A stretch of DNA of 24,000 bases from Gammaproteobacteria bacterium (GTDB lineage Bacteria; Pseudomonadota; Gammaproteobacteria; DSM-19610). Shown here in pieces: positions 2,219-19,144 of the stretch. Both the position numbers and the translations under genes were made by a program. The stretch's first letter is position 1. Each line of letters begins with the position of its first letter. The DNA is taken from contig JAZGGH010000106.1 in assembly GCA_036480335.1 (NCBI GenBank), positions 12,309 to 36,308 of the forward strand. Direction: 5' to 3'. The notes under the pieces were generated by a model. It was not told the origin of the DNA, did not search any database, and saw only the letters and a list, made by a program, of their open reading frames with translations.

Positions 2219-2241
2219 GAGAAGGATATTCCGTTACGCAT

Positions 2242-3789
2242 CTATTTCGGACTGACAGGGCTGTCTGTGTGTATTTCCGGTGTTGCATAAATCATTTCGA
2301 GGCTGTCCAGAGAAGGTTCGATCAGTTTCAGCCAGGGTTCTGAGTAGAATCCTGCGCCCAGTAATATCAGAATAATGGTGATTGCCAGAATGCGTTCCAT
2401 AAAGGTGGCTGGCTCCAGTTCTTTTTTGCGTGGTTCTATCTGAGGTGGAGACAGGAAGGCGCGCTGGAAGGACCACAACAGGAAACCTGCTGCAGCAACA
2501 TTGCCGAGGGCTGCTGCAATAGTGACTAAAGCCCCAAAGCGTTTGATGGAGGCTTCCATCATTAAATGTGCTGCATCAAATCCGGGCGTGCCCGGCATAC
2601 CGATAATTGAAAGGCCGGCAATCAGGAAGGCGGTGCCAATAAACGGGAATTGTTCAAACAGGTTCCCCAGTCGCGGCAGTGATAACGTATGGGTGCGGCG
2701 GTATATAAGCCCGGTCATAAACAGGAGCCCGGCGGTAGCCAGTCCGAAATTCACAGAGAGTAGAATACTGCCCTGAAAGCCCAGTTTATTCAGGGTAAAT
2801 AAACCGATAACGATGATGCTTGTATGACTGACGACCGCGTATGCCAGTAGACGGCGCATGTTTGTCTGTATTATTGCGAGTAAAGCAGCATAGAAAATAC
2901 CGATGACGGCAAAGGCGACTACCCATTCATCCCAGAGTTTGATGGCATCGGGCACCAGCGGAAAAACAAAACGGACTAATCCGTAGATGCCTGTTTTTAG
3001 TCCGAGCAGAAAGACGCCGGCGACGGCGACAGTGCCATGCTCGGCCATGACAGGCAGCCAGCCATGCAGTGGAAACAGAGGGATGCGAATCGCCAGTCCA
3101 TAAAACAGGAGAAAGAAAATACTCACGGAGAGAGATTCCGGAAGGGGTTCATTTATCAGGCTTTGCAGTTCAAATGACCAGATGCCGTTATGTGCATCGG
3201 CATAGTTCCAGCCAAGGATAAAGACGCCTGTGAATAACAGGGCTAAACCGGTACCCATGAATTGCAGATAGCGTTGCCGGGCAAGGTCTTCCTTCGGTGC
3301 GTTTGCCCAGGCTTTGAGAATGAAAGCGATTAATATCAGTTCAACTGTTGAAAGCAGCGAGAACCATAATAAATTCTGCGTGCAGAAAAGGCTTTGTAAC
3401 GAGGCTTCGATGGCGAACACAACCGCAATGAATTTTGAATATGGATGGATTTTTCGTATATGTCCATAAAGCACAATCAGCAAGGTAATGATGGTAGTCA
3501 TAAGCATGAATAGAACGGACATACCATCAACGGCTGCATGATAAATAACAGGAGGCAACAGGTCGAAGCGTTCTGATAATTGCAGAGCACTGGTCTTGCC
3601 TTCCAGTGTGTAGTACAGATTAATGGCAATCATTAACTCAGCGATGGAAAAACCAATGGCAGTGGCTAACAGAAGGCGGGAATGTCGCAGCAACAGAACC
3701 ATGCCAAGCGCAACCAGTGGCAATAATTGCAAGGTAGCCAGGATAGGGTATGCGGATTGTGCTGACCAGTGAAGTTCAGGGATGCTCAT
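2242..3789 (-). CDS. Divergent NuoM/MrpD-like membrane subunit (paralog 2) with substitutions at canonical charged residues
   Basis: 515-aa polytopic protein with the family core IPLFPLHGWLPVMAEHGT...GLKTGIYGLVRF. In a by-eye alignment the TM7 Lys is Arg (LAIRIP), the TM5 FWE motif reads LLSTVE, and the TM12 GFxAE reads GFDAAH. The start ATG shares 1 nt with the dabB stop (TAATG, 3787-3791). Confidence 0.8.
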   Translation of the reverse strand: MSIPELHWSAQSAYPILATLQLLPLVALGMVLLLRHSRLLLATAIGFSIAELMIAINLYYTLEGKTSALQLSERFDLLPPVIYHAAVDGMSVLFMLMTTIITLLIVLYGHIRKIHPYSKFIAVVFAIEASLQSLFCTQNLLWFSLLSTVELILIAFILKAWANAPKEDLARQRYLQFMGTGLALLFTGVFILGWNYADAHNGIWSFELQSLINEPLPESLSVSIFFLLFYGLAIRIPLFPLHGWLPVMAEHGTVAVAGVFLLGLKTGIYGLVRFVFPLVPDAIKLWDEWVVAFAVIGIFYAALLAIIQTNMRRLLAYAVVSHTSIIVIGLFTLNKLGFQGSILLSVNFGLATAGLLFMTGLIYRRTHTLSLPRLGNLFEQFPFIGTAFLIAGLSIIGMPGTPGFDAAHLMMEASIKRFGALVTIAAALGNVAAAGFLLWSFQRAFLSPPQIEPRKKELEPATFMERILAITIILILLGAGFYSEPWLKLIEPSLDSLEMIYATPEIHTDSPVSPK

Positions 3790-5357
3790 TACAGAATAAC
3801 CACAAAAGTGAGGAGTAACATTAACAGCAGGTAGCGTGGCCGGCTGAGCATTTCGTCAACCCTGGTGAGTACTTCTCCGAGACGAATAACGGCATGCAGG
3901 ATGCCGTCATCGCCACCTTTCAATACCAGATGCTCTTCAAACCAGTGCAGCAGTGATGCGATCCATTCCATCAGTTTGCCCAGTAAACCGCGACCACGAC
4001 CGATGTCTCCGGAATCGCCGTCCAGTTGCATGCTGTGTGTGCTTTTTTGTTTTTCCCATTGCGCCAGTGATGAGACAGCGCCAATTGAGCCAGGCAAACC
4101 CACCAGTCGATTAACAACCTGCTGGTCGAAGGCTTGTGCATCGCGGGCGAGTGCAAGTGTCGGTTTTACAAATAGCCAGTCAGTTATCTGTTCCAGCCAG
4201 AAACGTTGCAGGGCTGCGGTGTAAAGCTGACGACGTTTTTGAATCCAGGCAGGTACGAAGCGGGTGTGTCCATTCAGTAAATGCATCATGGCGGGTGCGC
4301 TGAGGAAGTGATAGGCGCGCCAGATAGCATGTGCGACAAGATGCCAGAGTGCAAATTCAAACCAGCCCAGCCCACAGGCAAGAAACATCAGTCCGGTCTG
4401 ACCGGTGGTCGAAAACATTAATGCACTTTTGACATCCGTTTGTACCAGGCTGCCAATAAATCCGTAGAGTGCGGTGGCTGCGCCAATGATGGCGATCATC
4501 CACATAAGTTCAGGGGTGTGCATCAATAAAGGTTGCATGCGTATCAGTAGGAAAACGCCGGCATGCACCATCAAAGAGCCATAAAAAATAGCACTTGAGG
4601 GGGTTGGTCCTTCCAGTGATCGTGCAATCCAGGGAGAAAACGGGATTTGCGCTGACTTGGCCATGGCTGCCAACAATAATCCTGAAGCAATCAGTCCGGA
4701 ATGAAGGCTATCCAGAACGCCTGTATGGATAAAGATATCCGGCCATTCTGTACTGTTTATCCAGAAGAAAGATAAAATGATGGCGAGTAAAAAGCCGGTA
4801 TCACCTATTTTGTTAGTCACAAATGCCCGAGTAGCATTGTCTGCGGCGGTGGTGCGTTCATGCGAGTAGGCAATCAGTAAATACGAACAAACGCCAGCAA
4901 GTTCCCAGCCGACAAACATCAGCAGGGTATTGCCGGCCATAACAATCAGCAGCATGGCGGCAGTAAAGAGGCTCATGATCATGAAAAAACGTGGGTAACC
5001 TGCTTCACGATGTAGATAGTTGACCGAGAAATGCAGCGTGATCAGAGACAGCAGGCTGACCAGATGCGCCATAATGAGCCCGGGAGTGTCCAGCAAAAAA
5101 CTGATGTTGATATGATAGTCGCCACTATGAAACCAGGTGAATACCTGAATATACCCCGGCAGTTTCCCGTTTATCAGGGCAAATAGGTCGGCGTACAGGA
5201 GTATTAGAAAAGACAGGGTAGCGGCACTCAGGGCAATGCGCCGGGTTTGCCGTTCACCGGCTTCATCCCGGTTGCTTCCAGAAACATAGCCTGCGGCAAT
5301 CATTAATGCGGCAAGCAGCGGCAGTGCTGGTACACATGCGATAATCCAGTCAGGCAT
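3789..5357 (-). CDS. dabB: DabB: NuoL/MrpA-like membrane subunit of a DAB-type CO2 uptake complex
   Basis: NuoL-class motifs are VGWELAGVCSYLLIAY and AAMAKSAQIPFSPWIARSLEGPTPSSAIFYGSLMVHAGVFLLIRM. It lies immediately downstream of the DUF2309 gene. I place the start at ATG 5357 (MPDWIIACVPALP..., 522 aa) rather than the track's 5444, because the longer ORF would overlap 95 nt of dabA. The chosen ATG sits in ATGCCTGA, an 8-nt overlap with the dabA stop. Confidence 0.8.
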   Translation of the reverse strand: MPDWIIACVPALPLLAALMIAAGYVSGSNRDEAGERQTRRIALSAATLSFLILLYADLFALINGKLPGYIQVFTWFHSGDYHINISFLLDTPGLIMAHLVSLLSLITLHFSVNYLHREAGYPRFFMIMSLFTAAMLLIVMAGNTLLMFVGWELAGVCSYLLIAYSHERTTAADNATRAFVTNKIGDTGFLLAIILSFFWINSTEWPDIFIHTGVLDSLHSGLIASGLLLAAMAKSAQIPFSPWIARSLEGPTPSSAIFYGSLMVHAGVFLLIRMQPLLMHTPELMWMIAIIGAATALYGFIGSLVQTDVKSALMFSTTGQTGLMFLACGLGWFEFALWHLVAHAIWRAYHFLSAPAMMHLLNGHTRFVPAWIQKRRQLYTAALQRFWLEQITDWLFVKPTLALARDAQAFDQQVVNRLVGLPGSIGAVSSLAQWEKQKSTHSMQLDGDSGDIGRGRGLLGKLMEWIASLLHWFEEHLVLKGGDDGILHAVIRLGEVLTRVDEMLSRPRYLLLMLLLTFVVIL

Positions 5358-8300
5358 GTTTGACCGCCGAATTCTGTTGATCGATGAGAGCAGGGGGCAG
5401 TGGCTCAGTATGTCCTTTGTACCAATCTTCAGAGTTGGAAACACGGGTTAAAGGCGTGTTTTCATGTTCCCAGGGAATGAATCCTTCTCCCGGTTTAAAG
5501 ACACTGATTTTGCCTGTTTCAGGATGAATCGCGCTGAGTAATAACCAGCCGTTGCCGACCAGTTGTTGCAGGGGCGGTTGGCGCATATAGATTTTTGTCA
5601 GGGTTTCTTCTGTGGCTTCAACGAGTACCTGTAAGCGCATGGCTTCGTGAATTTCTATCATTTGTTTGGGTAAGCCAGTGCGCAAATCGCTGGATGTTCC
5701 CTGCATGACGCCGAGCAGCCCTGTGACATTATGCGTGACTTTGGAGCCGCAGCCATACTGGTCGTTATTCACCGCCGAGAAATAATATTCGAGGTTGATG
5801 CCGGCGCCAACCGGACCGGCTGTTAATAAGATATTCTCGACAATGCTGCCGTCCGGGTCATAGGCCGGATCGTATGAAATCAGAAACACTCGCCGATCAA
5901 AAAATGCGCTCTGGCTGATGGAGCGCCGACCGATAATGGCGGCAGCATTGGTGGCATGCCCCAGTTCAGGCCGAGCCTGACTAAAATCTTTGCTGCGAGC
6001 GTAGATATGTCTCAACGCTTTTGTTCTGGAATCCCCTTTGGGCGCAGATGCCAGTCGGCGTGAGCGTTCATGTGCAGAACCCAGTGTGGCGATGTACAGA
6101 CCTTTTTGCAGATGGGTAAAGTTTTCCTGCAGCGATGCGGGTATCTGATCGCGGTCATACCAGATGATGTTTTCGTCACAAGTATTATGCTCTGCGCCCA
6201 GCACCCAGGTATCGTCTGGAATATCGATACCGCGTTCGCGCAACAAACGACGAATCGCAGGACGGTTTGCGATGGCGGCAAAAGCGCGAGCATTGGGCCC
6301 ACCATGCCGACCGCTACAGGCGCCGCAATCATAGGCGGCCAGATGGGGATTGTTTTCACTGATGGAGCCATGGCCCATCATGACAACAAAGGGAGCCAGT
6401 GTATGCTGCAGACCGATGGTGCGCAGAAAGCGTTCAATATGGTCTGCCTGCTCTATATCGGTTAAACCAACACGGGGTGTTTCGGGTGTTGCCGGTTTAT
6501 CAGGCTGCTCTGTATTGATCGTGATTTCTGTTGCTACCGGCACACTCAGGGTTTTGCGTTTGTTTTCCAGCCAGCGACCAAATCGGCTATACACCCAGGT
6601 TTTTGATGTCAGTACGGCGAGTGTAACCGGTGCATTTATTAGCACCAGACAGGTGGTTACGAGGAGATTACGGCGTGTTTCCTGGAAAACCAGATTCTGC
6701 AGCTTTTGTCCTGTTGAGAGGCGCTGTTTGCGTTTTTGCAACAGCGCTTCCTGGTGTGGTTGTGGGTGTTCCTGTATTTCATAGGAAGGTGTGGCAACCA
6801 CAGGGCACAGCGGGGTGATTTGTTCATCGTCCAGGCCCAGCCAGTTAATCGGCAAACCAAAAAACCCGCCTGCGCCGAGGGTTTCAATGTCCGGGTTATG
6901 CTCTTCCAAATGTCGCCGCATGCCTTCTTCGCGGTCATCCATGCAGAAAACGATTTGTGCATCGGGTCGTTTATCGCGTGTTTTCCAGAGCCCGCGGCCA
7001 TGATTTTGTATCACGGCATTGAATAACTGATCACGATAATGTCGTTCGTATGCCTGTAGCCAGATAAAGCTGGCCTGATGTTTATCCATGGCTTTAAGGC
7101 AATTAAATATCCTGTCAATCTGGGTTATATCCAGCTTGCGTATTTCAGCATCACTTAAGCCCAGATGTTGTGACAGGCGGAATAGTGGCCAGGCGCTATT
7201 GAACAAATTGTAGCTGCTCGGGTTGCCATTCGATGTGCTGTGTTGCCAGGTCCAGATGAGGTGTGCAAGGTGCCACCATTGCTGTTCATCCGGTGTGCAG
7301 ATGTCAGAACAGTTGAGGTGGTTTTGCGCCAGTGTTGATAAGTATTCGGGCAAGTGTTGGTTATAAAAATTTTGCCGCACCATGAATTCAGCCAGATGGT
7401 GTTTGAAGTACCAGCGAATCACATCAATACTGGCTTCGATCTGCCATAAATTCCGACACAGTCGCTGAGCAAACAGCCGCTCCAGCACCAGTCGCACGGC
7501 AAGATAATCCATCATGTTGACATTGACGTTTGTCAGGCCGTCATAGCCTGGACGGTTATGTCGCCACAGAAACATGCCCGACCATCCCGGTAGCTCAAGC
7601 GCCAGACGTTGCAGGTAGCTTTCCCATTTGCCTTCATCAATTCCGAGCCAGCGTAATTCGATAACAACCGTATCAAAAGCGTCTTCAGGCAAAGCATCTA
7701 GCGTATCTGCCCAATCCGGAAAATCATCAAAAACGCTTGTCTTATCAAACACAGCGCTCTTGCGCCAGAAAGTGTAGAAGCCTTCCTCTCTGCCCGGACC
7801 TGGCCAGGCAGAAAATCCCTGGTCAAGAAAGGCGGCCATATAACGGATCAGTAGTGGCCGCATTTGTTCCAGCAAATCTTCGCCGGTGAGTTTTTTTAGC
7901 ATGCCTTCCAGCGTGAGTTTCTCACCAATTTGACTGAATAATTTATCCATATCACGACGTGCATGTTTGCGGATGAGAAAGTCAATGACAGGCTGATCAT
8001 CAGGGTGATCATCATTTGCCAGCGTTTGTGACAACATGCTTTCAGCTTTTTCCGGTGTCAGGTCAAGCATGTCTTCCGGGTGGGCGATGAAATGATCCAG
8101 ACCCAGTATGTGCAGGCAGGCTGACCATAAATCAAAAATAGCCTGGTGTTCGTTCAGATCAGCTGTTTTCAGCAGGCGTTCGCGCGCAATGCTGTCAATG
8201 TCAGGCTGAAAGGCATGCAGCGCATTCAGTTCACCAAGCTGCCAGTTAATCTGGCATCCGGTGACCGGTTTAATCGGATGTAACAGCCGAGCGAGATAAA

Positions 8301-8643
8301 TATCTGCCTGGGAAATATCGCGGTCTGCTGCTTTGAAAATAATATCGCTGGCTTTGAGGTTGGCTGTTTCGTCAAGTGTTGTGCGCAGCTCGTCAAGTGT
8401 GATACGTCCCTGTTTGAATAAAGCGCGAAATCGGGTTTGTGGCAGATAGCCAAAATTGCCGGTGATCTCGCAGGCTTTTTCCACCGCTTCGGCGAAAGGC
8501 AGATGTTCAAATCCATGCAGGGTATTGTGATGAACGAAGTCTTTGATGGCTGCCTGCCCAGGCAGCACATGCTCCATATGTTGAATAGCACCACGTAAGC
8601 GCTGCAGTATTTCTTCGCGCGGACTGTGAGTCTTTCTAATCAT
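5350..8643 (-). CDS. dabA: DabA (DUF2309 family): beta-carbonic-anhydrase-like catalytic subunit of a DAB-type CO2 uptake complex
   Basis: 1097 aa, with an N-terminus (AIKDFVHHNTLHGFEHLPF) typical of DUF2309. A beta-CA-like metal site is visible: FCMDDRE (Cys567/Asp569/Arg571, nt 6931-6945) and MGHGS...YDCGACSG (His758 at nt 6370-6372, Cys773 at nt 6325-6327). The His-to-Cys spacing of 15 matches what I recall for Halothiobacillus DabA (C351, D353, H524, C539). The gene is translationally coupled to a NuoL-like gene. Confidence 0.85.
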   Translation of the reverse strand: MIRKTHSPREEILQRLRGAIQHMEHVLPGQAAIKDFVHHNTLHGFEHLPFAEAVEKACEITGNFGYLPQTRFRALFKQGRITLDELRTTLDETANLKASDIIFKAADRDISQADIYLARLLHPIKPVTGCQINWQLGELNALHAFQPDIDSIARERLLKTADLNEHQAIFDLWSACLHILGLDHFIAHPEDMLDLTPEKAESMLSQTLANDDHPDDQPVIDFLIRKHARRDMDKLFSQIGEKLTLEGMLKKLTGEDLLEQMRPLLIRYMAAFLDQGFSAWPGPGREEGFYTFWRKSAVFDKTSVFDDFPDWADTLDALPEDAFDTVVIELRWLGIDEGKWESYLQRLALELPGWSGMFLWRHNRPGYDGLTNVNVNMMDYLAVRLVLERLFAQRLCRNLWQIEASIDVIRWYFKHHLAEFMVRQNFYNQHLPEYLSTLAQNHLNCSDICTPDEQQWWHLAHLIWTWQHSTSNGNPSSYNLFNSAWPLFRLSQHLGLSDAEIRKLDITQIDRIFNCLKAMDKHQASFIWLQAYERHYRDQLFNAVIQNHGRGLWKTRDKRPDAQIVFCMDDREEGMRRHLEEHNPDIETLGAGGFFGLPINWLGLDDEQITPLCPVVATPSYEIQEHPQPHQEALLQKRKQRLSTGQKLQNLVFQETRRNLLVTTCLVLINAPVTLAVLTSKTWVYSRFGRWLENKRKTLSVPVATEITINTEQPDKPATPETPRVGLTDIEQADHIERFLRTIGLQHTLAPFVVMMGHGSISENNPHLAAYDCGACSGRHGGPNARAFAAIANRPAIRRLLRERGIDIPDDTWVLGAEHNTCDENIIWYDRDQIPASLQENFTHLQKGLYIATLGSAHERSRRLASAPKGDSRTKALRHIYARSKDFSQARPELGHATNAAAIIGRRSISQSAFFDRRVFLISYDPAYDPDGSIVENILLTAGPVGAGINLEYYFSAVNNDQYGCGSKVTHNVTGLLGVMQGTSSDLRTGLPKQMIEIHEAMRLQVLVEATEETLTKIYMRQPPLQQLVGNGWLLLSAIHPETGKISVFKPGEGFIPWEHENTPLTRVSNSEDWYKGHTEPLPPALIDQQNSAVKHA

Positions 8644-10109
8644 AATGACAGTCCGGAAAAAAGCGCGCCAAGCTGGGCGACAGACGCAGACATCATCGCC
8701 AGGACTGTGTGGGGTGCGATGCCGATGCTAACGATACAAACGGATAATAATCCGGCGGCAGCCACTTCGGAGCCGTGTAGATCCTTGATCTTGTGCATAC
8801 CCGGCCGTACCGGGCCTGTAAACAGGCGGCCGATTGTACGTATCGAATAAGCGGCGCTGATCATAATGCCCAGACTGACCAGCAGCATCACCCAGCCCCA
8901 GCGTTCAAATCCGCCAATGATGGTATGCAGTTCTGCGATGAAACCGGCAGTGCCTGGAATGCCCATTCCGGCCAGTAGTGCCAGTGAGGTGAAAAAGGCA
9001 AAGCGTGGGGTCACCTGAATCAGCGAACTGTAGTGATTAATGTCACGCGTGTTGGTGCGTTCATAGAGCAGGCCGATCAATAGGAACAGGGCTGCCGCGA
9101 CCAGCCCGTGAGCGACCATTTGCATCACTGCACCGCTCAGGCCGGCCTTGTTTAAAGAGGCGATTCCCAACAGAACAATGCCCATATGACTGACTGATGA
9201 ATAAGCAATCATGGCTTTCAGGTCCGTCTGTCGCCAGGCGAGCAGCCCACCATATATCAGGCTGAACAAAGCCAGGCCTGCGAGAATATTTTGCAATGCC
9301 AATGCGGCCTCGGGCAACATGGTGACTGCTCGAATCAGTCCGTAGCAACCCATTTTCAGCAGAATCCCGGAGAGCAGAATACTCACAGGGCTGGGCGCTT
9401 CAACATGCGCAAGCGGTAACCAGCCATGCAGGGGAAAAATCGGCATCTTGACGCCAAAACCCAGTAGCAGGCCGAGAAAAATCAGTATCTGGGTGTGGAC
9501 AGGCAATAATCGGGCGCCGGTGGCGATATCCTCTATATAAAAGGAATGCCCCGGGATCGCATCAAACACAACCAGCAAACTAATCAGCATGAACACGGAG
9601 CCGCCCATCGTGTATAACACAAAATTCAGTGCCGCCTGATGCTTGCGTTTTCCACCCCAGCGATCGATCAGAAAAAATAGTGGGATCAGTGTCAGTTCCC
9701 AGAAGATGTAAAACAGTGACCAGTCCTGTGCCATAAAGACACCCAGCATCGCCGTTTCCAGAATCAACATGAGTGAAAAATAGGCTTTGTAATTTGTCAG
9801 GATTTTATTAGAAACCAGAATAGCCAAAAAACATAGCAAGGTTGCCAGCAGCACCATCGGATAGGAAATCCCGTCGATACCCAGAGCAAAGGAGGTGCCC
9901 AGTCGCGTGTTCCAGGGAGTAATATGGCTGAACTGCAGTGCAGCAGAGGAAAAATCAAAATTGAATAACAGGCTCCACGACAGCGCCAGTGTGGCAACGG
10001 ATGTCGCGATCGCTATGGCGTGGATATGCTTTCGGCTCTGTTTCGGCCAAAAAGCAATCAGTACCGTCCCCAGGAGCGGCATGCCCAGTAATATGGTCAA
10101 TACATGCAT
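8640..10109 (-). CDS. NuoM/NdhD/MrpD-class proton-antiporter-like membrane subunit (paralog 1, first gene of the DAB-type operon)
   Basis: 489-aa polytopic protein with a fully canonical signature set: FYIFWELTLIPLFF, GFGVKMPIFPLHGWLPLAHVEAPSPVS, GILLKMGCYGLIR and GTAGFIAELHTI. Its stop overlaps the dabA start as ATGA (8640-8643). Confidence 0.85.
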   Translation of the reverse strand: MHVLTILLGMPLLGTVLIAFWPKQSRKHIHAIAIATSVATLALSWSLLFNFDFSSAALQFSHITPWNTRLGTSFALGIDGISYPMVLLATLLCFLAILVSNKILTNYKAYFSLMLILETAMLGVFMAQDWSLFYIFWELTLIPLFFLIDRWGGKRKHQAALNFVLYTMGGSVFMLISLLVVFDAIPGHSFYIEDIATGARLLPVHTQILIFLGLLLGFGVKMPIFPLHGWLPLAHVEAPSPVSILLSGILLKMGCYGLIRAVTMLPEAALALQNILAGLALFSLIYGGLLAWRQTDLKAMIAYSSVSHMGIVLLGIASLNKAGLSGAVMQMVAHGLVAAALFLLIGLLYERTNTRDINHYSSLIQVTPRFAFFTSLALLAGMGIPGTAGFIAELHTIIGGFERWGWVMLLVSLGIMISAAYSIRTIGRLFTGPVRPGMHKIKDLHGSEVAAAGLLSVCIVSIGIAPHTVLAMMSASVAQLGALFSGLSL

Positions 10110-10391
10110 GAGTTTTTCATTTTTAGGGTGTGGCGACGAGCTGTACTATTGCTCGCGAGTATTAGCAGCATAAATATACCATAATCAGGCAGGGTTGCAG
10201 GCGTTTCATTGGTCTGCAATCTACCCGTAAAATGATGGCGCATTTTATGTCATGGTCTTTGATAATCATGCAATATATTGCATTGCGATACTGCGATAAT
10301 TTTGTGCTACTGTCACCTGATCAAGGGAAACTGCAGGAGTTTTTCGAGAATTTTCTGTATTCAGTCAATTCTGATTCAGGATCAGAGACCG

Positions 10392-11540
10392 CTAAAAAGG
10401 TAGCAATATCTCTTTTGCTTTTTCCATTGCGTGGATGGCTAATTCAAGATCAACTTTGTCAGGATTTTCTGCGGACTGGGCATTGAGTTTTTCAAACAGC
10501 TCCGCTTGTTCCCAGGTCCAGTGATTGTCGTTCGTATCTTTAATATACGCTGCCCAGGGGATGAATTTTGTCAGTGGGAAAAGCTGGCCTTGATTGGGTG
10601 AAATATCCACATTCAGGCCGGATATGAACATGACGTTTTTTCCCCGATAAGCGTTGTCCTGCACGATAGTCCTGAACGCCCGATCAAATTCTACCTGGGT
10701 GTTGGCCTGGGCAGCGGTCAGGGCAGGCGATCCAGAAGTGACTATATAAGGCATGACGTCTAGCAGATTATTTTCCAGATGGTCACGACCTTCTTCCTGT
10801 TGCTGGGCCGTTTGTCGGCGAAAAAAGAACATGCCAGGATGCAGGCGATCGCCGATGGGTTCACCTTTGCCGGGCTTCCATTCATACCCTTGCAGGAGAT
10901 TGCGTAATGCAGGTGAGGGTGAGAAAGTTTTTGAGGTGCTCTGGGAGTGGCGTATTATCGGATTACCGCTCGAATCCACTTTAACCAGATCTTCCAGTTT
11001 AAGGATTAAGCCCTGGCTTCTGTCAGCATTATGTAGCTGATTATCAATAATAATTTCCGGGCCGGTTTTGCCCTCGCGCAGCAGAATGTTATTTTTGGCA
11101 AACGTATATTCACTCAGGTACCAGTCCAGTGCGCCACAGATTTTTCCACAGCTTGTGGTTTCTTCCTGCTGCTCAGTCTGCAGGCGTCGATAAACGCCAA
11201 ATGTTCTGGATTGTGGGTCGTATCCAACATGGCTCGCCTGGATGATGACAAGGTCCTTGCCATGATGTGCGTAAGGGCCGTGGCGATCAGTTGCCACGAC
11301 GCCTCCCACCAGGCCGTGGTTGAAGGGGAATGAGCCAAAATGCTTGGCAATCAATATGATAGGGTAGCCCTGGCTTTCGTCAGAACAAAATGCCCGCGAT
11401 GGCATGATTTTACCCTGCTCAAAACCTAGCGATTTAGCCAGATTATAAAGTTTTGGCACAAACAGGCTATATCGCATGGAAGTGGGTAGCATCTGGAAAG
11501 AATCAAGCAAGTCTGCAATTGAGCTGCTGGTGCCGTACAT
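10392..11540 (-). CDS. Soluble uncharacterized protein; candidate LCIB / theta-carbonic-anhydrase-like (beta-CA fold) protein
   Basis: 382-aa ORF with an AGGGA Shine-Dalgarno 6 nt upstream and no long hydrophobic segments. Candidate metal ligands are AFCSDESQGYP (Cys52, nt 11385-11387; Cys-x-Asp), ASHVGYD (His104, nt 11229-11231) and SCGKICGA (Cys131/Cys135, nt 11136-11150). The spacing is close to the Cys46/His102/Cys126 triad I recall for Phaeodactylum LCIB4. That the ORF is coding is solid; the family call is tentative. Confidence 0.5.
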   Translation of the reverse strand: MYGTSSSIADLLDSFQMLPTSMRYSLFVPKLYNLAKSLGFEQGKIMPSRAFCSDESQGYPIILIAKHFGSFPFNHGLVGGVVATDRHGPYAHHGKDLVIIQASHVGYDPQSRTFGVYRRLQTEQQEETTSCGKICGALDWYLSEYTFAKNNILLREGKTGPEIIIDNQLHNADRSQGLILKLEDLVKVDSSGNPIIRHSQSTSKTFSPSPALRNLLQGYEWKPGKGEPIGDRLHPGMFFFRRQTAQQQEEGRDHLENNLLDVMPYIVTSGSPALTAAQANTQVEFDRAFRTIVQDNAYRGKNVMFISGLNVDISPNQGQLFPLTKFIPWAAYIKDTNDNHWTWEQAELFEKLNAQSAENPDKVDLELAIHAMEKAKEILLPF

Positions 11541-11707
11541 AGCAATCCCTGTGATTATGATCGATGCCAGTGTACTTGGCTGGTTTGGTAATCGCCAGTG
11601 CAGGTGATTGAATCGTTAATTAAAGCCGATTCTGATACGATCTCATGCATTTTTAGTTAAAATATTTTTAGAGTCATTGTATAGACGATTGCTTAAAGCG
11701 ATCGCTA

Positions 11708-11733
11708 TTTATATAGATAATTATCTATATAAA
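11708..11733. promoter_or_regulatory. 26-bp perfect palindrome TTTATATAGATAATTATCTATATAAA in the cbbL / LCIB-like divergent promoter region; candidate CbbR (LysR) operator
   Basis: I checked all 13 base pairs on each arm around 11720/11721 by hand. The palindrome lies 137 nt upstream of the cbbL ATG. Its half-site ATTATCTATAT (11720-11730) recurs exactly at 19070-19080, just upstream of cbbR. The adjacent CTATTTATA (11705-11713) recurs at 19103-19111. Confidence 0.45.
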
Positions 11734-11869
11734 AGATAAGAAATTTCAATTGGCATAACTCTAGATGGTCTGTATGCTATATAGCTGATTTTTCACTGTT
11801 CTCTAAAAGTTTTGTTTAAAGGCTTTAAATTTTTCGATAACAATTTATTTGTTCACAGGAGACAACGAT

Positions 11870-13288
11870 ATGGCTAAAACCTATAGTGCGGGTGTAAAAG
11901 AATACCGCGAAACGTACTGGACACCAGATTACTCAGTAAAAGAAACAGACATTCTGGCTGTTTTCAAAATTACACCACAAGACGGTGTTCCTCGTGAAGA
12001 AGTTGCTGCTGCAGTAGCTGCTGAATCTTCAACAGGTACATGGACTACAGTGTGGACTGACTTGTTAACTGACCTTGATTACTACAAAGGCCGTTGTTAC
12101 GCAATCGAAGACGTTCCAGGTGATGACACGTGTTTCTACGCTTTCATCGCTTACCCAATCGATCTATTTGAAGAAGGTTCTGTTGTAAACATCCTTACGT
12201 CTTTAGTGGGTAACGTATTCGGCTTTAAAGCACTACGTGCACTTCGTTTAGAAGATATCCGTTTCCCAATTGCTTACGTTATGACTTGTAATGGTCCACC
12301 ACAAGGTATTCAAGTTGAGCGCGACATCCTAAACAAATACGGTCGTCCTTTATTAGGTTGTACTATCAAACCTAAACTTGGTCTTTCTGCTAAAAACTAC
12401 GGTCGTGCTTGTTACGAAGGTTTACGCGGTGGTCTTGATTTCACTAAAGATGACGAAAACGTAAACTCTCAACCATTCATGAGATGGCGTCACCGTTTTG
12501 ACTTCGTTATGGAAGCGATTCATAAAGCTGAAGCTGAAACTGGCGAGCGTAAAGGTCACTACCTAAACGTTACCGCTCCAACTGCTGACGAAATGATGCG
12601 TCGTGCTGAATATGCGAAAGAACTTGGCGCGCCTATCATTATGCATGACTACTTAACGGGTGGTTTATCTGCAAACACACAGTTAGCTCAATGGTGTCAA
12701 AACAACGGTATGTTGTTACACATTCACCGTGCTATGCATGCTGTACTTGACCGCAACCCGCACCACGGTATTCACTTCCGCGTACTCACTAAAGTTCTTC
12801 GTTTGTCTGGTGGTGATCACCTTCATTCAGGTACTGTTGTGGGTAAACTGGAAGGCGACCGTGACGCAACTTTGGGTTGGATCGACACAATGCGTGATTC
12901 ATTTATTAAAGAAGATCGCTCACGTGGTTTATTCTTCGACCAGGATTGGGGTTCTATGCCTGGCGTAATTCCAGTAGCTTCTGGTGGTATTCACGTATGG
13001 CACATGCCTGCACTAGTTTCTATCTTCGGCGATGACTATTGTCTTCAGTTCGGTGGTGGTACATTAGGTCACCCTTGGGGTAACGCTGCGGGTGCGGCTG
13101 CTAACCGTGTTGCTGTTGAAGCATGTGTTGAAGCGCGTAACTCAGGTGTTGAGCTTGAGAAAGAAGGTAAGGATATCCTTACTAAAGCGGCTAAACATAG
13201 CCCAGAGCTTGCAATTGCAATGGAAACCTGGAAAGAGATCAAATTCGAATTTGATACGGTTGACAAGATTGACGTAGCGCATAAGTAA
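11870..13288 (+). CDS. cbbL: RuBisCO large subunit, form IA
   Basis: [21 protein letters not shown]..., the catalytic [10 protein letters not shown] (carbamylated Lys at nt 12446-12448), HIHRAMHAV and [12 protein letters not shown]. The start is ATG 11870, with AGGAG (11857-11861) 8 nt upstream. The track's TTG at 11849 adds 7 unlikely residues. 472 aa. Confidence 0.97.
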
Positions 13289-13302
13289 AAGTGTCATCTA
13301 GC

Positions 13303-13341
13303 ACGTTCTGGCGGCGTTGTTTTTCGCGCCAGCCAGAACGT
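13303..13341 (+). other. Strong stem-loop in the cbbL-cbbS intergenic spacer (14 bp with one bulge, 10-nt loop)
   Basis: ACGTTCTGGC (13303-13312) pairs perfectly with GCCAGAACGT (13332-13341). Beyond a bulged A13331, GGCG (13313-13316) pairs with CGCC (13327-13330). No U-run follows, so this is not a classical terminator. It is more likely an mRNA stability or processing element. Confidence 0.4.
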
Positions 13342-13389
13342 ACTATCTAACTACTTTTCGCATAAACAAATTATTTTGGAGTAACTCAA

Positions 13390-13749
13390 ATGAGTGATGT
13401 ACAAGATTACAATTCGAGCTTAAGCGATGCTGCTGCAAGCCGTAAATACGAAACTTTTTCATACCTGCCTACTTTGAGCAAAGAATCTACTCGCGCTCAG
13501 ATTCAATATATCGTTGATAAAGGCTGGAATCCGGGTATCGAACACACTGAACCAGAAAATGCATTTAGCAATTACTGGTACATGTGGAAATTGCCTCTGT
13601 TTGGTGAAACCAACGTAGACACTATCATTGCTGAGCTTGAGGCTTGTCATAAAGCCCATCCGGACAATCATGTTCGTCTGCTAGGTTTTGACAACTTTGC
13701 ACAGTCTGCTGGTGCAGCAATGGTTGTTTACCGCGGCATATCTGTATAG
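13390..13749 (+). CDS. cbbS: RuBisCO small subunit
   Basis: 119 aa. [51 protein letters not shown] is a typical form IA small subunit. TGGAG Shine-Dalgarno upstream. The gene lies 101 nt after cbbL. Confidence 0.93.
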
Positions 13750-13775
13750 ATAACAGGTTGTCCTGTCGCTGATTG

Positions 13776-13812
13776 AAGCCTCTGCCGGACGCGTATCTGT
13801 CAGAGGCTTTTT
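13776..13812 (+). terminator. Rho-independent terminator/attenuator after cbbS
   Basis: AAGCCTCTG (13776-13784) pairs with CAGAGGCTT (13801-13809), giving a 7 bp GC-rich core plus 2 A-T pairs and a 16-nt loop. It is followed by a T5 run (13808-13812). Downstream cbb genes start only about 40 nt later, so it probably acts as a partial attenuator. Confidence 0.55.
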
Positions 13813-13852
13813 GCTAAATGCAAGGCAATATTTATTGCTTTAGGGAGTGGGT

Positions 13853-14164
13853 ATGAAGCGACCTGATAAATATATTGGCGTCCACAACGAAGTCAATGGT
13901 GGCATGACCACGATTGGAAAAATTATCCGTGATGCCTGGGTGTTTGATTTGATTGAAGAAACTGAAACCTGTGAAGGCTGGAATTTTGCGGGTATTGATG
14001 CCTTGCTGGATAAGGTCAATCATGAATGGGATAAATATGGTTGTTTAGCAAGTAATTTGCCATCTGAATTGTTTGAGAAACATCAACGAATTCATGGCCA
14101 GGCAATCAAGAATGCTCATGCTGCCGGTTGGTCTGGTGAGGTGGAAACTGAGGATGAAAAATAA
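13853..14164 (+). CDS. Small acidic hypothetical protein encoded between cbbS and cbbQ
   Basis: 103 aa from ATG 13853, with GGGAG (13843-13847) 5 nt upstream. The track's GTG at 13847 adds 2 residues. The sequence is MKRPDKYIGVHNEVNGGMTTIGKIIRDAWVFDLIEETETCEGWNFAGIDALL...EVETEDEK. I recognise no family. Support comes from the RBS, the ORF length and the in-operon position. Confidence 0.6.
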   Translation: MKRPDKYIGVHNEVNGGMTTIGKIIRDAWVFDLIEETETCEGWNFAGIDALLDKVNHEWDKYGCLASNLPSELFEKHQRIHGQAIKNAHAAGWSGEVETEDEK

Positions 14165-14237
14165 ACTATCCGGATAGAATTTATATTTAAGTGTAATTTA
14201 TAATAGAACAAGGTCTTGCAATTAAGAGAGAGTAGCT

Positions 14238-15059
14238 ATGTCCATTACTGAAAATGTTGTAGATACCGAACAATACATCATCAAAGATGAGCCTTACTAT
14301 GAGCCTGTTGGTCAAGAAATAGAGTTATACGAATCTGCCTATGACGTCCGTATGCCGATGATGATAAAAGGTCCTACGGGCTGCGGTAAATCTCGATTTG
14401 TAGAATACATGGCATGGAAACTGGGCAAACCATTAATTACGGTGGCTTGTAATGAAGATATGACCGCTTCTGATTTAGTGGGTCGTTTCCTGCTTGATAA
14501 AGATGGTACAAAATGGCAAGACGGTCCACTGACGACAGCGGCGCGTATGGGTGCTATCTGTTACCTTGATGAAATCGTCGAAGCACGCCAGGATACCACG
14601 GTTGTTATTCATCCACTTACCGATCACCGTCGCAGTCTACCATTAGATAAAAAAGGTGAGTTGATTCAAGCACACCCTGATTTTCAATTGGTTATTTCTT
14701 ATAACCCCGGTTATCAGAGCTTGATGAAAGACTTAAAGCAGTCAACCAAACAGCGTTTTGGTGGTATGGACTTTGATTATCCCGAAGAAAAAATAGAAAT
14801 CAGTATCGTTGCTAAAGAATCGGGTGTTGATGTTGAAACGGCTGAGAAGTTGGTACACATCGCTCACCGTGCACGTAATCTCAAAGGCCACGGCCTGGAT
14901 GAAGGTATATCTACTCGTTTGCTGGTTTATTCTGGTCAGTTAATTGGTAAAGGGGTAGCGCCACTGGATGCATGTAGCATGACAATGGTAACGCCTTTAA
15001 CAGATGATCCTGATATGCGTGATACACTGAATGCAGCGGTTGAAACGTTCTTTGGATAA
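14238..15059 (+). CDS. cbbQ: CbbQ, MoxR-type AAA+ ATPase subunit of the CbbQO RuBisCO activase
   Basis: 273 aa. The Walker A motif GPTGCGKS is at nt 14370-14393 and the Walker B is AICYLDEIVEA. The overall sequence resembles the CbbQ/NirQ/NorQ family, and a cbbO gene lies downstream. Confidence 0.93.
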   Translation: MSITENVVDTEQYIIKDEPYYEPVGQEIELYESAYDVRMPMMIKGPTGCGKSRFVEYMAWKLGKPLITVACNEDMTASDLVGRFLLDKDGTKWQDGPLTTAARMGAICYLDEIVEARQDTTVVIHPLTDHRRSLPLDKKGELIQAHPDFQLVISYNPGYQSLMKDLKQSTKQRFGGMDFDYPEEKIEISIVAKESGVDVETAEKLVHIAHRARNLKGHGLDEGISTRLLVYSGQLIGKGVAPLDACSMTMVTPLTDDPDMRDTLNAAVETFFG

Positions 15060-15249
15060 AGAGTTCACTACCTTCATAATAATTGAAGGTAAGTAAGCTT
15101 GCTGTCATGCAGCAGGTTAAATTCGCAAAAATTTAGAAATTTTTAGTTTCAAATAAGTGCTGTTATTTAATAAGTGTGATAGTACTTATCAATGCCAGTC
15201 ATGTCGCTTTTTGTAAAAGAGAATAGTGATTGGTGAATGAGATGAAATT

Positions 15250-17598
15250 ATGTCAATAAAGCTCGAAGACTACGAAGATTTTCTTAAAGATGCGGCTCCT
15301 GAAATCAGAGACGTATTAAACAGCACCTTTCAAGAAGCCTCACGGGTTATGTCACCAGCTGGCTTGCAAATCTATATGGATGGTGCAAAAAGTCTGTGCG
15401 ATTTAGGTCGTGGCTCAGATGTGGTTATTTCCTACATTCAAGAAATGCCACTGGTCGCAAAAGAATGTGGTGAAGATGTTATCGGTGATTGTTTAAGTGC
15501 AGCACTGAAACTTTCATCGATGACCTCTGCCGAAGTTGTCTCCCTGTTGTTTTCAAGTATGCCGTCTGCCGCTCGTAACCTGGGTGATGCTGAATTATTT
15601 CGTGGCTATTTAACCCTGATCCATCAGTTAGCCTCCACCGCTTCGCGTGGTGTGCGCCCAATGTTGAATCAAATTGACGAGTTGCTATCAAAATTAACCT
15701 TAAGTGGATTGCGGCGCTGGGCTAATTTTGGTTCTCAGGCTTATCGTCGTGATTTTGATAATCTTACGGCTTATTTCAATCTTGAGTCGGCTGATAGTCG
15801 CGCTATGTTGTCCAGGGAACGTCGCGGTATTCTATTTGTAAAAACTCAGCGCAGGTTAAATTTTTACCTCCGAGCTTTATGGGGACGTGATTTTTTCTTA
15901 CGCCCTACAGGTGCTGATTTTGCCGACTTTCGTCCTTATATCGAACACCGTATATTTCACCTGCCTGATGCGCTTGACGACTATGGCGATATCCCTGGAC
16001 TAGAAGTCTATCGTGCGACTGCAGCGCATATGGCATCACATATGGTTTATTCTTCGGAACCTATTTCAGCAGAGGGCCTCAGCCCTGCTCAAATGTTTTT
16101 TATCGGCCTGGTTGAAGATGCTCGTATTGAATATAAAGCCGTGGCTGAATTCCCTGGGCTTAAAAAGCTTTGGCGTCGGATGATGCAAGAAGCTGATCAT
16201 GAGAACAATAAACCAGAACATCGATCTATGCCGATTCTAGTGCATTTCTCACTTATGTTGCTAGATGATAGCATCACCTCAGATGACAAAGATTTAAATA
16301 ATCTCGCAAAGAATTTCCACGAAGGTATCGAAAAAAATCAGGATAACAACAAGTTTTGCTGGAATCTGGGTTTGGATATTTTCAACTTGTTCTCAAAGCG
16401 TAAAGAAGTCCCTAGCCTGCGTGTTTTGGAACGTATTGATATACCCTACCGTGATGACAATCGTTATGTTTGGGAGTTTGAAGAATTCACGGGAGACGTA
16501 GAGTTTGACTATGTGCCCGCCAGCCAACAACAGGTAAGACGTGAAGTTAGTGCGCTGATGATGGCGCACGAAGTGGATTGCGAACTGGCTGGTGATGATG
16601 CCCAGGAAATCTGGACCAATAAAGACGTCATGCGTTTTTACGAAGATGATTTAACTGATGGCGCTGCAAGTTTCAATGATGCCTGGGGTAAAGAGCCGGT
16701 TTCAGATCCTTATCATTATCAAGAATGGGATTACCAAATTCAGTTGCACCGACCTGATTGGGCAACGGTTTATGAGCGTCGTCAACCACGCGGTCATCTC
16801 GAAGATATTCAAATGATTCTTGACGAATATAAGCCAATTGCACATCGCATAAAACAAATCATCGACCTGCTCACACCTGAAGGTGTACAACGTGTGCGTA
16901 ATATGGAAGATGGTGATGAAGTCGATATCAACGCCGCCATTGATGCGATGATAGCGATCCGTATGGGTGAACAACCAAACCCCCGTATTACCATGCGCAA
17001 CGTATTAAAAACGCGTGATTTATCCGTGGTGTTATTGCTCGATTTGTCGGAATCTACCAACGAACCCATGAATGGTTCTGACAAAACAGTATTACAATTA
17101 ACGCGAGAAGCGTCTACCCTGGTGGCAACCGCTATCGAAGGTATTGGTGATCCGTTCGCCATTCACGGCTTCGCATCTGATGGCCGCCATGATGTACAGT
17201 ATTATCGCTTTAAAGACTTTAATCAGCATTTTGATGATGAAGCCAAATCACGTCTGGCGGGCATGAAAGGTGGACTATCAACCCGTATGGGAGCGGCATT
17301 GCGACATGCGGGTAATCACTTGTTAAAACAACAGGAACGACGTAAATTGATATTGATGATTACTGATGGAGAACCCGCAGATATTGATGAACGCGATCCA
17401 CAGCATTTGCGCCACGATACTAAAAAGGCAGTTGAAGAGTTGTATAGCACAGGCGTATTGACTTATTGTTTAACGCTTGATCCGAATGCGGATGACTATG
17501 TGAAAAGAATCTTTGGCGCGAATAACTATACCATTATCGATAATGTAGAAAAATTACCCGAACAATTGCCAACTTTGTTTGCCAGTCTGACGGCTTAG
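15250..17598 (+). CDS. cbbO: CbbO, von Willebrand factor A-domain adaptor of the CbbQO RuBisCO activase
   Basis: 782 aa. The C-terminal VWA domain carries the MIDAS motif VVLLLDLSEST (DLSES at nt 17041-17055) and a downstream ITDGEPAD. The size and the position after cbbQ are typical. Confidence 0.9.
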   Translation: MSIKLEDYEDFLKDAAPEIRDVLNSTFQEASRVMSPAGLQIYMDGAKSLCDLGRGSDVVISYIQEMPLVAKECGEDVIGDCLSAALKLSSMTSAEVVSLLFSSMPSAARNLGDAELFRGYLTLIHQLASTASRGVRPMLNQIDELLSKLTLSGLRRWANFGSQAYRRDFDNLTAYFNLESADSRAMLSRERRGILFVKTQRRLNFYLRALWGRDFFLRPTGADFADFRPYIEHRIFHLPDALDDYGDIPGLEVYRATAAHMASHMVYSSEPISAEGLSPAQMFFIGLVEDARIEYKAVAEFPGLKKLWRRMMQEADHENNKPEHRSMPILVHFSLMLLDDSITSDDKDLNNLAKNFHEGIEKNQDNNKFCWNLGLDIFNLFSKRKEVPSLRVLERIDIPYRDDNRYVWEFEEFTGDVEFDYVPASQQQVRREVSALMMAHEVDCELAGDDAQEIWTNKDVMRFYEDDLTDGAASFNDAWGKEPVSDPYHYQEWDYQIQLHRPDWATVYERRQPRGHLEDIQMILDEYKPIAHRIKQIIDLLTPEGVQRVRNMEDGDEVDINAAIDAMIAIRMGEQPNPRITMRNVLKTRDLSVVLLLDLSESTNEPMNGSDKTVLQLTREASTLVATAIEGIGDPFAIHGFASDGRHDVQYYRFKDFNQHFDDEAKSRLAGMKGGLSTRMGAALRHAGNHLLKQQERRKLILMITDGEPADIDERDPQHLRHDTKKAVEELYSTGVLTYCLTLDPNADDYVKRIFGANNYTIIDNVEKLPEQLPTLFASLTA

Positions 17599-18122: not shown

Positions 18123-19064
18123 TTAGAGTTTCCAGGGCGTAGCCACTAGTCTGGCACCTTCCTGCATGCAGAAATCGTGGAAAGCCTGCGCTACTAACGA
18201 TAGCTTCTTGCCTTCCGGATATACCAGATACCATTGTCGCTGAATAGGAAAATTTTCTACATCCAGTATCGTTAATGGGCCGTTAGGGTTTTCCAGTGTC
18301 AGCGCGGTGTGTGATAAAACTGAAATACCAAGACCGGCAACAATCGCGTGTTTAATTGCCTCGTTGCTGCCAAGTTCAAAACCGGTATTAGGCGTGAGTT
18401 TGTATTGGTTAAACAACCGGAAAACAGCATCCCTGATTCCTGAACCTGGTTCCCGCATAATAAAGGATTCGCTGGTTATTTCTTTCAGCGGTATATTCTT
18501 TCTACCCGCAAGCGGATGTTCGCTGCTGGCAATAACAACCAGTTTGTTCTCTGCAAAAGGCGATGCTTTTATTTTTATGCCCGGCGGGAAACTTTGGCCC
18601 AGAATATAAATATCATCTTCATTTCTGGACAGGCGCTCAATCAGATGTTCGCGGTTAATGACATTTAATGATACTTCAATGCCGGGAAAGCGTTTACTGA
18701 ATTCACCCAGTATTCGAGGTGCAAAATACTGGGCCGTTGTCAGTGCGGTCAGGCGCAGGCGACCATATTTCAGACCTTTCAGATCGGCAATTTCCATTTC
18801 GAGGCGAGAGAAGGTGCCGAAAATGTCCCGAGTGGCTTTGTATAATACCTCTCCAGCAGCGGTCATTTGTACTTTGCGATTCGCTTGCTCAAGTAATGGC
18901 ATGCCGATAGTTTGACTCAGCTTACTCATCTGCATGGAGACAGTGGGCTGTGTCAGGTGTAATATTTCAGCCGCTTTGGTAAAGCTGCCCTGGTGGACGA
19001 TAGCGGCAAACACCTGGAGCTGGCGCAGGCTGGCATGACGGGCGATGTTTTCAAGTTCTATCAT
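18123..19064 (-). CDS. cbbR: LysR-type transcriptional regulator, CbbR-like
   Basis: 313 aa. The N-terminal wHTH is LRQLQVFAAIVHQGSFTKAAEILHLTQPTVSMQMSKL. FIMREPGSGIRD matches the CbbR/CmpR-type co-inducer domain motif FIxREPGSGxR. The gene sits next to the cbb cluster. Confidence 0.8.
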   Translation of the reverse strand: MIELENIARHASLRQLQVFAAIVHQGSFTKAAEILHLTQPTVSMQMSKLSQTIGMPLLEQANRKVQMTAAGEVLYKATRDIFGTFSRLEMEIADLKGLKYGRLRLTALTTAQYFAPRILGEFSKRFPGIEVSLNVINREHLIERLSRNEDDIYILGQSFPPGIKIKASPFAENKLVVIASSEHPLAGRKNIPLKEITSESFIMREPGSGIRDAVFRLFNQYKLTPNTGFELGSNEAIKHAIVAGLGISVLSHTALTLENPNGPLTILDVENFPIQRQWYLVYPEGKKLSLVAQAFHDFCMQEGARLVATPWKL

Positions 19065-19112: not shown

Positions 19113-19144
19113 GTGTGTTGTCTAGCGGTTTTGGGAGGTGGACG

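Follow-up and report, generated by a model that had tools for sequence, protein, structure and literature searches.

Introduction

LCIB-type or theta carbonic anhydrases (CAs) are discussed almost exclusively as components of the CO2-concentrating mechanisms (CCMs) of algae and hornworts, and green algae, diatoms and hornworts are the groups in which reviews list orthologues of LCIB. In algae, LCIB converts CO2 and HCO3- into each other in the stroma surrounding the pyrenoid (PMC10473226). The DAB systems of inorganic-carbon uptake are described in the DAB1 and DAB2 structure papers as DabA and DabB, with or without a small DabC, only; published DAB work brings in LCIB solely for structural comparison and mentions no soluble LCIB-type partner. 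Here we describe an LCIB/theta-CA-like gene on a 24,000-nucleotide stretch of DNA from a gammaproteobacterial sulfur bacterium (contig JAZGGH010000106.1 of assembly GCA_036480335.1; hereafter the window), where it stands between a RuBisCO operon and a DAB-type gene cluster. The gene probably encodes a cytoplasmic, zinc-dependent CA of the LCIB/theta-CA lineage that serves inorganic-carbon uptake and a RuBisCO of the non-carboxysomal kind.

Members of the family are not nameless in the databases: UniRef names several bacterial and algal ones through an LCIB-domain tag, and NCBI lists them as hypothetical. A full-text search of the literature found neither bacterial LCIB-type proteins in chemoautotrophs nor a link between such proteins and DAB or SulP transporters; many subscription papers lie outside its coverage, and prior mention is possible. 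What is new here is a long-form, bacterial, transporter-linked LCIB-type protein.

Family assignment and predicted structure

The gene and the parts of its product are as follows.

10392–11540, minus strand: long-form LCIB/theta-CA-like gene with an ATG start, 382 residues and its stop codon at 10392–10394 (open reading frame list)
11112–11468, minus strand: N-lobe, residues 25–143, homologous to the N-terminal half of LCIB (Pfam, PtLCIB4 profile match, hhalign)
10791–11111, minus strand: family-specific insertion of about 105 residues, residues 144–250, unaligned to canonical LCIB by hhalign
10506–10790, minus strand: C-lobe, residues 251–345, matching the C-terminal half of LCIB (hhalign, Foldseek)
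10395–10505, minus strand: C-terminal tail, residues 346–382, past the end of the hhalign match and with no counterpart in canonical LCIB

A preliminary description of this DNA, made from its letters alone, had proposed a soluble LCIB/theta-CA-like protein of 382 residues. Start, stop and length all check out, and a gene caller predicts the same gene on two metagenome contigs. Neither a signal peptide nor a transmembrane segment was evident on inspection of the sequence. Three further open reading frames that overlap the gene, at 10753–11040 and 10232–10486 on the plus strand and at 11114–11350 on the minus strand, were judged spurious, the main frame being strongly conserved.

The family assignment is borne out by Pfam, profile comparison, predicted fold and ligand conservation. 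PF18599 (LCIB_C_CA), the family against which the preliminary description had proposed to search, was the only Pfam match of the protein (residues 27–141, model positions 7–122 of 223, E value 4.5e-5), although its 23.3 bits fall narrowly below the curated cutoff of 25. The same family is matched at E<0.01 by 21 of 29 diverse relatives, with a best E value of 9.4e-9, and most close homologues, including relatives at 66–84% identity, carry PF18599 in precomputed annotation. No NCBIfam model matched the protein, and the Pfam search returned no match to Pro_CA at E≤0.01, nor to DabA (PF10070), DabB (PF00361) or DabC.

Neither a single-sequence phmmer search of the PDB nor a profile of 18 close homologues recovered an LCIB structure. 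With a profile of the 29 diverse sequences the top seven PDB matches were all LCIB-family chains, representing five distinct proteins in the order PtLCIB4 (5b5y, E value 3.7e-4), 6kfs, CrLCIB (5k5w), 9vzj and LCIC (5b5x). Compared by hhalign with a profile of 24 canonical diatom-type LCIBs, the family aligned across its N-terminal 114 columns with 94.4% probability; a more permissive alignment reached 96% (E value 3.9e-9) and paired template positions 2–217 of 219 with residues 25–345.

An AlphaFold model built on a 69-sequence alignment had a predicted local distance difference test score (pLDDT) of 94.6 and a predicted template modelling score (pTM) of 0.92, where a shallower alignment had given a pLDDT of 59 in the catalytic region. 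The predicted fold is that of LCIB, with which the preliminary description had proposed to compare it. The top eight Foldseek matches in the PDB are all LCIB-family entries (6kfs; PtLCIB4 5b5y, 5b5z and 5b60; CrLCIB 5k5w; LCIC 5b5x), with E values from 4e-10 to 2e-5 and template modelling (TM) scores by target of 0.58–0.77. After them the E value jumps to 0.02, and no beta-CA is among the significant matches. TM-scores of about 0.75 by target correspond to about 0.5 by query, over alignments of some 330 columns.

Canonical LCIB is a compact single domain of about 220–260 residues; the protein described here is larger. The N-lobe holds all the ligands, together with Ser53, Asp54, Arg119 and a His-rich loop (H87–H93). 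The insertion that follows is modelled at high confidence as a beta-rich subdomain (strands 152–156, 161–166, 177–180, 196–199, 203–206 and 238–241) and, taken alone as residues 144–255, found no match in the canonical LCIB profile. The C-lobe returns to the LCIB pattern, its ISGLNVDISP...FPLTKFIPW corresponding to the canonical LGGIQINTP...DYFLPLRF, and the 37-residue tail is modelled as two helices (345–353 and 365–373). The insertion and the tail set the protein apart from the canonical LCIBs; within the LCIB superfamily it belongs to a separate, long-form subfamily. Insertion and tail may have a role in oligomerisation or docking.

Conservation of the putative metal site

The residues of the putative metal site and its surroundings are encoded at the following positions.

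11385–11387, minus strand: Cys52, the first ligand position, in FCSDE
11379–11381, minus strand: Asp54, in FCSDE
11229–11231, minus strand: His104, in SHVGYD
11184–11186, minus strand: Arg119, in the N-lobe
11148–11150, minus strand: Cys131, in CGKIC
11136–11138, minus strand: Cys135, in CGKIC

A codon check reproduced the ligand spacings of 52 and 27 residues first reported for Cys52, His104 and Cys131. The PtLCIB4 triad to which they had been compared, Cys46/His102/Cys126, also agrees with the deposited structure: an offset of 15 on the 5b5y chain yields Cys46, Ser47, His88, His102 and Cys126, and the mutants S47R and H88A are named in the PDB with this numbering. The three residues are in register with the PtLCIB4 ligands in both hmmsearch and hhalign. 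In the hmmsearch alignment of the diverse profile with the PDB, FCSDE pairs with LCSDE of PtLCIB4, SHVG with SHVG, and sCGK with CCGS.

The ligands are also conserved among orthologues, which the preliminary description had proposed to check. Only seven positions are invariant in the 29-sequence alignment, in which identity drops to 27%, and Cys52, His104 and Cys131 account for three of them; Asp54 is nearly invariant. Counts in the 69-sequence set are 58/58 for Cys52, 56/58 for Asp54, 52/57 for Glu55, 59/60 for His104 and 66/67 for Cys131, with Arg119 kept in 59/62 and His93 in 56/59. Among 80 species-representative genomes the three ligands are retained in 79 or 80. Judged from these alignments, the Cys-His-Cys motif exceeds what chance would give. 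CGKIC had been noted for both of its cysteines, and both are present; Cys131 is conserved, but Cys135 (25/67 in the diverse set and 54/80 in close genomes) falls outside the conserved site.

Around the ligands, the residue after Cys52 is Ser53, as in PtLCIB4 (C-S-D-E), where CrLCIB has Arg (C-R-D-E); the PDB includes PtLCIB4 S47R, a mutant designed to probe the position equivalent to Ser53. Arg119 aligns with CrLCIB Arg194, and the His-rich loop with CrLCIB His162 and PtLCIB4 His88. The position of these histidines corresponds to residue 90, the alignment of the loop being uncertain.

Comparison with described carbonic anhydrases

The closest described proteins are PtLCIB3 and PtLCIB4, theta-CAs of Phaeodactylum tricornutum (5b5y), with which the window protein shares the Cys-His-Cys register, the C-S-D-E sequence and SHVG around the His ligand. 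The fold of PtLCIB4 is shared as well (Foldseek E value 1e-9, TM-score by target 0.77), and both proteins are soluble and tied to the handling of inorganic carbon. They differ in that identity is 12% in the structural alignment and that the window protein has the 144–250 insertion, the 37-residue tail and a Tyr at the His88 equivalent. Moreover, PtLCIB3 and PtLCIB4 are plastid-targeted whereas the window protein is bacterial and predicted to be cytoplasmic.

Chlamydomonas LCIB and LCIC (5k5w, 5b5x) belong to the same superfamily and have the same ligands, with Arg119 as the Arg194 equivalent, and for them too an interconversion of CO2 and HCO3- has been proposed around a RuBisCO that lacks a tight enclosing compartment. 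Unlike the window protein, CrLCIB has Arg in place of Ser in its C-R-D-E, and the structural match is weaker (E values 8e-8 to 2e-5). There was no sign in the window of a paralogous partner of the LCIC type.

Canonical beta-CAs (Pro_CA) resemble the protein in their Cys/His/Cys ligands, in the Asp at +2 from the first Cys and in an alpha/beta fold, and the LCIB family is described as beta-CA-like. Beyond the missing Pro_CA match, however, the canonical motif C-x-D-x-R...H-x-x-C is absent: C52-S-D-E-S has no Arg at +4, and 27 residues separate His104 from Cys131 instead of the HxxC arrangement. With DAB and the cyanobacterial CupA/CupB-NDH-1 complexes the locus shares the association of a CA-like protein with RuBisCO and with membrane subunits of the antiporter type, but the LCIB-like protein is not homologous by sequence to DabA, DabC or CupA; DabC is by description a half-NuoM-like membrane protein, whereas the LCIB-like protein is soluble.

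Distribution

At 90% identity the homologues form 2525 clusters, and at 50% identity 371 representatives remain. The long-form subfamily is present in 409 species-representative genomes, which are mostly gammaproteobacterial. Carriers include Sedimenticolaceae, symbionts of Lamellibrachia, Escarpia, Solemya, Ctena and Lucinoma, Ca. Thiodiazotropha, Thiotrichaceae, Cocleimonas, Chromatiaceae, Acidiferrobacterales, Thiogranum, Competibacteraceae and Contendobacter. Cocleimonas flava DSM 24830 (locus L068) is a carrier available in culture.

Long-form members also occur in eukaryotes (Paulinella micropora, Hemiselmis tepida and the dinoflagellates Polarella glacialis, Togula jolla and Durusdinium trenchii). 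These proteins (P0125, P0134, P0135, P0141, P0144 and P0146) are N-terminally extended and 36–48% identical to the bacterial protein. In a neighbour-joining distance tree, a crude one that carries no support values, the algal sequences fall among the bacterial ones in three or more separate groups, a pattern suggestive of horizontal transfers between bacteria and algae.

Two members stand apart. A bacterial protein of 486 residues (P0122) joins a long-form LCIB-like domain to a C-terminal response-regulator receiver domain (PF00072, E value 5.6e-29); this fusion suggests that at least some members may be controlled by phosphorelay or act in signalling. A 59%-identical copy comes from a short contig assigned by binning to Candidatus Bathyarchaeota (locus L073; JAIVTC010000184.1, 3.1 kb); this placement is probably a binning artefact, since the distribution is otherwise gammaproteobacterial.

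Genomic context in related genomes

We surveyed 80 loci from different species, numbered with the prefix L, that had been found with the close alignment and are biased to relatives of at least 56% identity. Neighbours were detected by targeted tblastn at these loci and, separately, by an unbiased Pfam census of immediate neighbours. A DabA cluster, a SulP transporter or RuBisCO lies within 10 kb of the LCIB-like gene at 25 of the 80 loci.

Two gene orders recur with the DabA cluster. The gene is upstream of the cluster in the window, in L006, which has the window's layout, and in L075; it follows the last NuoM-like gene by about 100 bp in L009, L017, L022, L023 and L064. A DabA-type cluster is also present at L048 and L075, and partly at L020, L076 and L081. 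At 15 loci a SulP transporter is no more than 5 kb away, and a SulP+STAS transporter is directly beside the gene in L028, L032, L033, L043, L044, L045, L076, L081 and others. The SulP family includes bicarbonate transporters. Adjacent cbbLS genes were found in L006, L020 and L056.

The census gave a similar picture: SulP+STAS accounts for 12 of 145 immediate neighbours, PF00361 antiporter-like subunits of the DabA cluster for 10 of 145, and the RuBisCO large subunit occurs twice. PF00361 is the most frequent upstream family (9/72) and SulP+STAS the most frequent downstream one (10/73). The contexts of the remaining loci are unrelated or unclear. The link to inorganic-carbon uptake thus recurs, with transporters of two unrelated classes, without being universal. 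Hence the tie to energy-coupled CO2 uptake drawn in the preliminary description holds in that it recurs in two gene orders, while the placement with RuBisCO and DAB belongs to a minority of loci and SulP is equally common.

Other neighbours were seen as well. A CitMHS/TrkA_C transporter of about 660 residues, Na_sulph_symp-like, is near the gene in L004/L005 (2694–4682) and L089 (849–2834) and makes up 5 of 72 upstream neighbours; it occurs in tubeworm symbionts and near the divergent member P0148, and may be another anion or inorganic-carbon transporter. Several tubeworm-symbiont copies adjoin a sigma-54 two-component system.

RuBisCO operon and DAB-type cluster

On one side of the LCIB-like gene, divergent from it and 308 bp away, begins a set of RuBisCO genes.

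11849/11870–13288, plus strand: cbbL
13390–13749, plus strand: cbbS
13847–14164, plus strand: small conserved open reading frame between cbbS and cbbQ, 105 residues (103 on both source contigs)
14238–15059, plus strand: cbbQ
15250–17598, plus strand: cbbO
18123–19064, minus strand: LysR-family regulator, best NCBIfam match CbbR, under the cutoff of that model

Searches with Pfam, NCBIfam and gene calls found no carboxysome genes in the window, and by its gene content 11849–17598 is identified as a non-carboxysomal form I RuBisCO operon. Neither Pfam nor NCBIfam matched the reading frame at 13847–14164. Beyond the cbb genes, the window encodes two members of the histidine-phosphatase family (19115–19759, plus strand; 21380–21898, minus strand), a sulfide:quinone-reductase-like flavoprotein with a weak match to the type III enzyme (20098–21369, plus strand) and a small STAS-domain protein (22142–22456, plus strand).

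On the other side, 282 bp downstream of the LCIB-like gene and on the same strand, a cluster begins whose genes overlap or abut at their starts and stops.

731–10109, minus strand: five-gene DAB-type cluster (Pfam, NCBIfam, gene calls)
8640–10109, minus strand: NuoM-like protein, 489 residues
5350–8643, minus strand: DabA, 1097 residues
3789–5444, minus strand: NuoL-like DabB (3789–5357 according to the gene caller)
2242–3789, minus strand: NuoM-like protein, 515 residues
731–2218, minus strand: NuoM-like protein, 495 residues

The gene does diverge from cbbL and stand upstream of a DAB operon, as first described, but the operon is an unusual five-gene cluster and not a standard DAB of two or three genes. 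Its DabA is about 270 residues longer than the span of the Pfam model, matches the DabA2 chain of a cryo-EM structure (9rd0) with an E value of 2.5e-72 and aligns in its FCxDxR and DCGAC motifs; on this comparison it is a genuine DabA. The five-gene unit recurs in L006, L017 (a Solemya velesiana symbiont), L023 (a Ctena symbiont) and L064. From its gene content, the cluster appears to be a kind of DAB not yet described, with four antiporter-type subunits making up a complex-I-like membrane arm, an arrangement that recalls NdhD3/NdhF3/CupA.

Intergenic regions

Two spacers flank the LCIB-like gene.

11541–11848, no strand assigned: divergent spacer shared with cbbL
10110–10391, minus strand: spacer of 282 bp between the LCIB-like gene and the DAB-type cluster

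A promoter scan of the window placed a promoter-like site for the LCIB-like gene at 11749–11720 on the minus strand, with a 10/12 match. An inverted-repeat search found a perfect 26-nt palindrome, TTTATATAGATAATTATCTATATAAA, at 11708–11733, which overlaps the -10 box of that site and is weakly conserved in L006 and L020. As a candidate operator, the palindrome could be bound by, for instance, the LysR/CbbR-like regulator encoded at 18123–19064.

The spacer on the cluster side has no terminator-like site on its minus strand. It contains an extended -10-like element, TGGTATATT, at 10173–10181 on the minus strand, which is conserved in L006. In this closest relative an extra open reading frame of 209 residues (7120–7749, plus strand), for which no family match was found, separates the LCIB-like gene from the cluster's first gene, and the cluster-proximal 120 bp or so, including TGGTATATT, remain conserved. 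Because the element is conserved and a reading frame is inserted in L006, the DAB-type cluster probably has its own promoter. Co-transcription of the LCIB-like gene with the cluster is neither shown nor excluded: the missing terminator speaks for it, the -10-like element and the reading frame in L006 against it.

Discussion

The protein described here is homologous to LCIB, is predicted with high confidence to share its fold, keeps its three ligands almost without exception and is recurrently linked to genes of inorganic-carbon uptake. We consider it probable that the protein works as a CA on this pathway. Zinc would be bound by Cys52, His104 and Cys131 and its water molecule oriented by Asp54, with Arg119 and the His-rich loop making up the rest of the pocket; these roles are drawn from a review (PMC5876011) and from PDB entry titles. 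The DabA complex, proton-coupled here, or a SulP transporter in other genomes would build up a bicarbonate pool. By equilibrating cytoplasmic CO2 and HCO3-, the soluble enzyme would connect this pool to a RuBisCO of the cbbLSQO type, which has no carboxysome. A soluble CA beside these genes fits because accumulated bicarbonate needs dehydration to CO2 before a non-carboxysomal RuBisCO can use it, and net flux through the enzyme would then run from the pool to RuBisCO. Such a role would parallel that of LCIB in algae.

Several observations weigh against this account. A free cytosolic CA can dissipate an energised bicarbonate pool, as known from cyanobacterial physiology. A simple co-operation with DAB is therefore not self-evident, since the pumped pool should be lost, and alternatives in which the protein is docked or conditionally active stay alive. 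The Pfam score of the protein itself stops short of the curated cutoff. About two thirds of the related loci have no inorganic-carbon neighbour, and some hosts (Competibacteraceae, Cocleimonas) are not obligate autotrophs. At residue 90, 78 of 80 genomes have His, whereas the LCIB-like protein and its closest relative have Tyr, and in our reading of the alignment this tempers confidence that this particular protein is active. CrLCIB and LCIC, moreover, carry the same ligands and showed no CA activity in vitro (PMC5876011). Their inactivity is ascribed to disorder of His162/161 and Arg194/193, and His162/His88 and Arg194 are held to be important for the integrity of the active site (PMC5876011).

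If free CA next to a CO2 pump looks counter-productive, the protein might instead be an accessory or second catalytic subunit docked through its insertion or tail on the multi-antiporter DabA complex, for vectorial, energy-coupled hydration of CO2 like that of CupA/CupS on NDH-1MS. The gene is immediately beside the five-gene cluster in two gene orders, the family-specific extra domains are present, and the three full-length NuoM-like subunits beyond DabB could give docking surfaces. Against such contact, the gene is away from any DabA cluster in most genomes and lies beside SulP transporters as often as beside such a cluster, algal members have no such complex, and DabA has a complete CA-type site of its own. 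The cluster, moreover, seems to be separately promoted, with an unrelated reading frame in between in L006. We therefore regard physical contact of this kind as unlikely. The precedent of CrLCIB and LCIC raises another alternative, a non-catalytic or conditionally active sensor of CO2/HCO3-, regulator or scaffold, as was once proposed for the Chlamydomonas proteins. Their lack of activity in vitro, the Tyr at the His88 equivalent, the receiver-domain fusion of P0122 and the sigma-54 two-component system beside several tubeworm-symbiont copies would all suit this role. It is nevertheless rather improbable: near-absolute conservation of the three ligands, Asp54 and Arg119 across deep divergence is expected of a working metal site, Ser53 is as in the active PtLCIB4 and not the Arg of CrLCIB, and, according to a later report, LCIB complements yeast and Arabidopsis that are deficient in CA (Kasili et al. 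2023, as cited in PMC10473226).

The reaction catalysed could also be a different one. Hydrolases of carbonyl sulfide (COS) and CS2 with a beta-CA fold exist, and such an enzyme would suit sulfur oxidisers; the family is concentrated in sulfur-oxidising Gammaproteobacteria, and a sulfide:quinone-reductase-like gene lies in the window. Yet the gene has inorganic-carbon transporters and RuBisCO for neighbours rather than genes of sulfur oxidation, the family extends to algae and Competibacteraceae, and the nearest structures are CA-active LCIBs, which together make a COS or CS2 hydrolase very improbable. A CA of the LCIB/theta-CA lineage, cytoplasmic and serving inorganic-carbon uptake and RuBisCO, thus remains our preferred reading.

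A broader proposal can be built on it, one that we offer tentatively and hold to be doubtful as a whole. Carboxysome-free sulfur-oxidising bacteria, including many animal symbionts, would run an alga-like CCM, in which an undescribed four-antiporter-subunit DabA supercomplex or a SulP transporter loads bicarbonate and a dedicated long-form LCIB-type CA supplies free RuBisCO with CO2 or recaptures CO2 in its surroundings; horizontal exchange with such bacteria would account for the long-form genes found in dinoflagellates, cryptophytes and Paulinella.

At the least, the findings suggest that bacteria without carboxysomes use an alga-like enzyme for inorganic carbon. The carriers include symbionts of tubeworms, lucinids and Solemya, on which the nutrition of whole animal communities depends. 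Placement of the gene beside two unrelated transporter classes and a non-carboxysomal RuBisCO raises the question of how carboxysome-free autotrophs use the bicarbonate that they accumulate. The answer could inform the design of minimal CCMs in crops, for which LCIB is a candidate part, and the joint bacterial and algal distribution of the family bears on the evolutionary origin of a component of the algal CCM.

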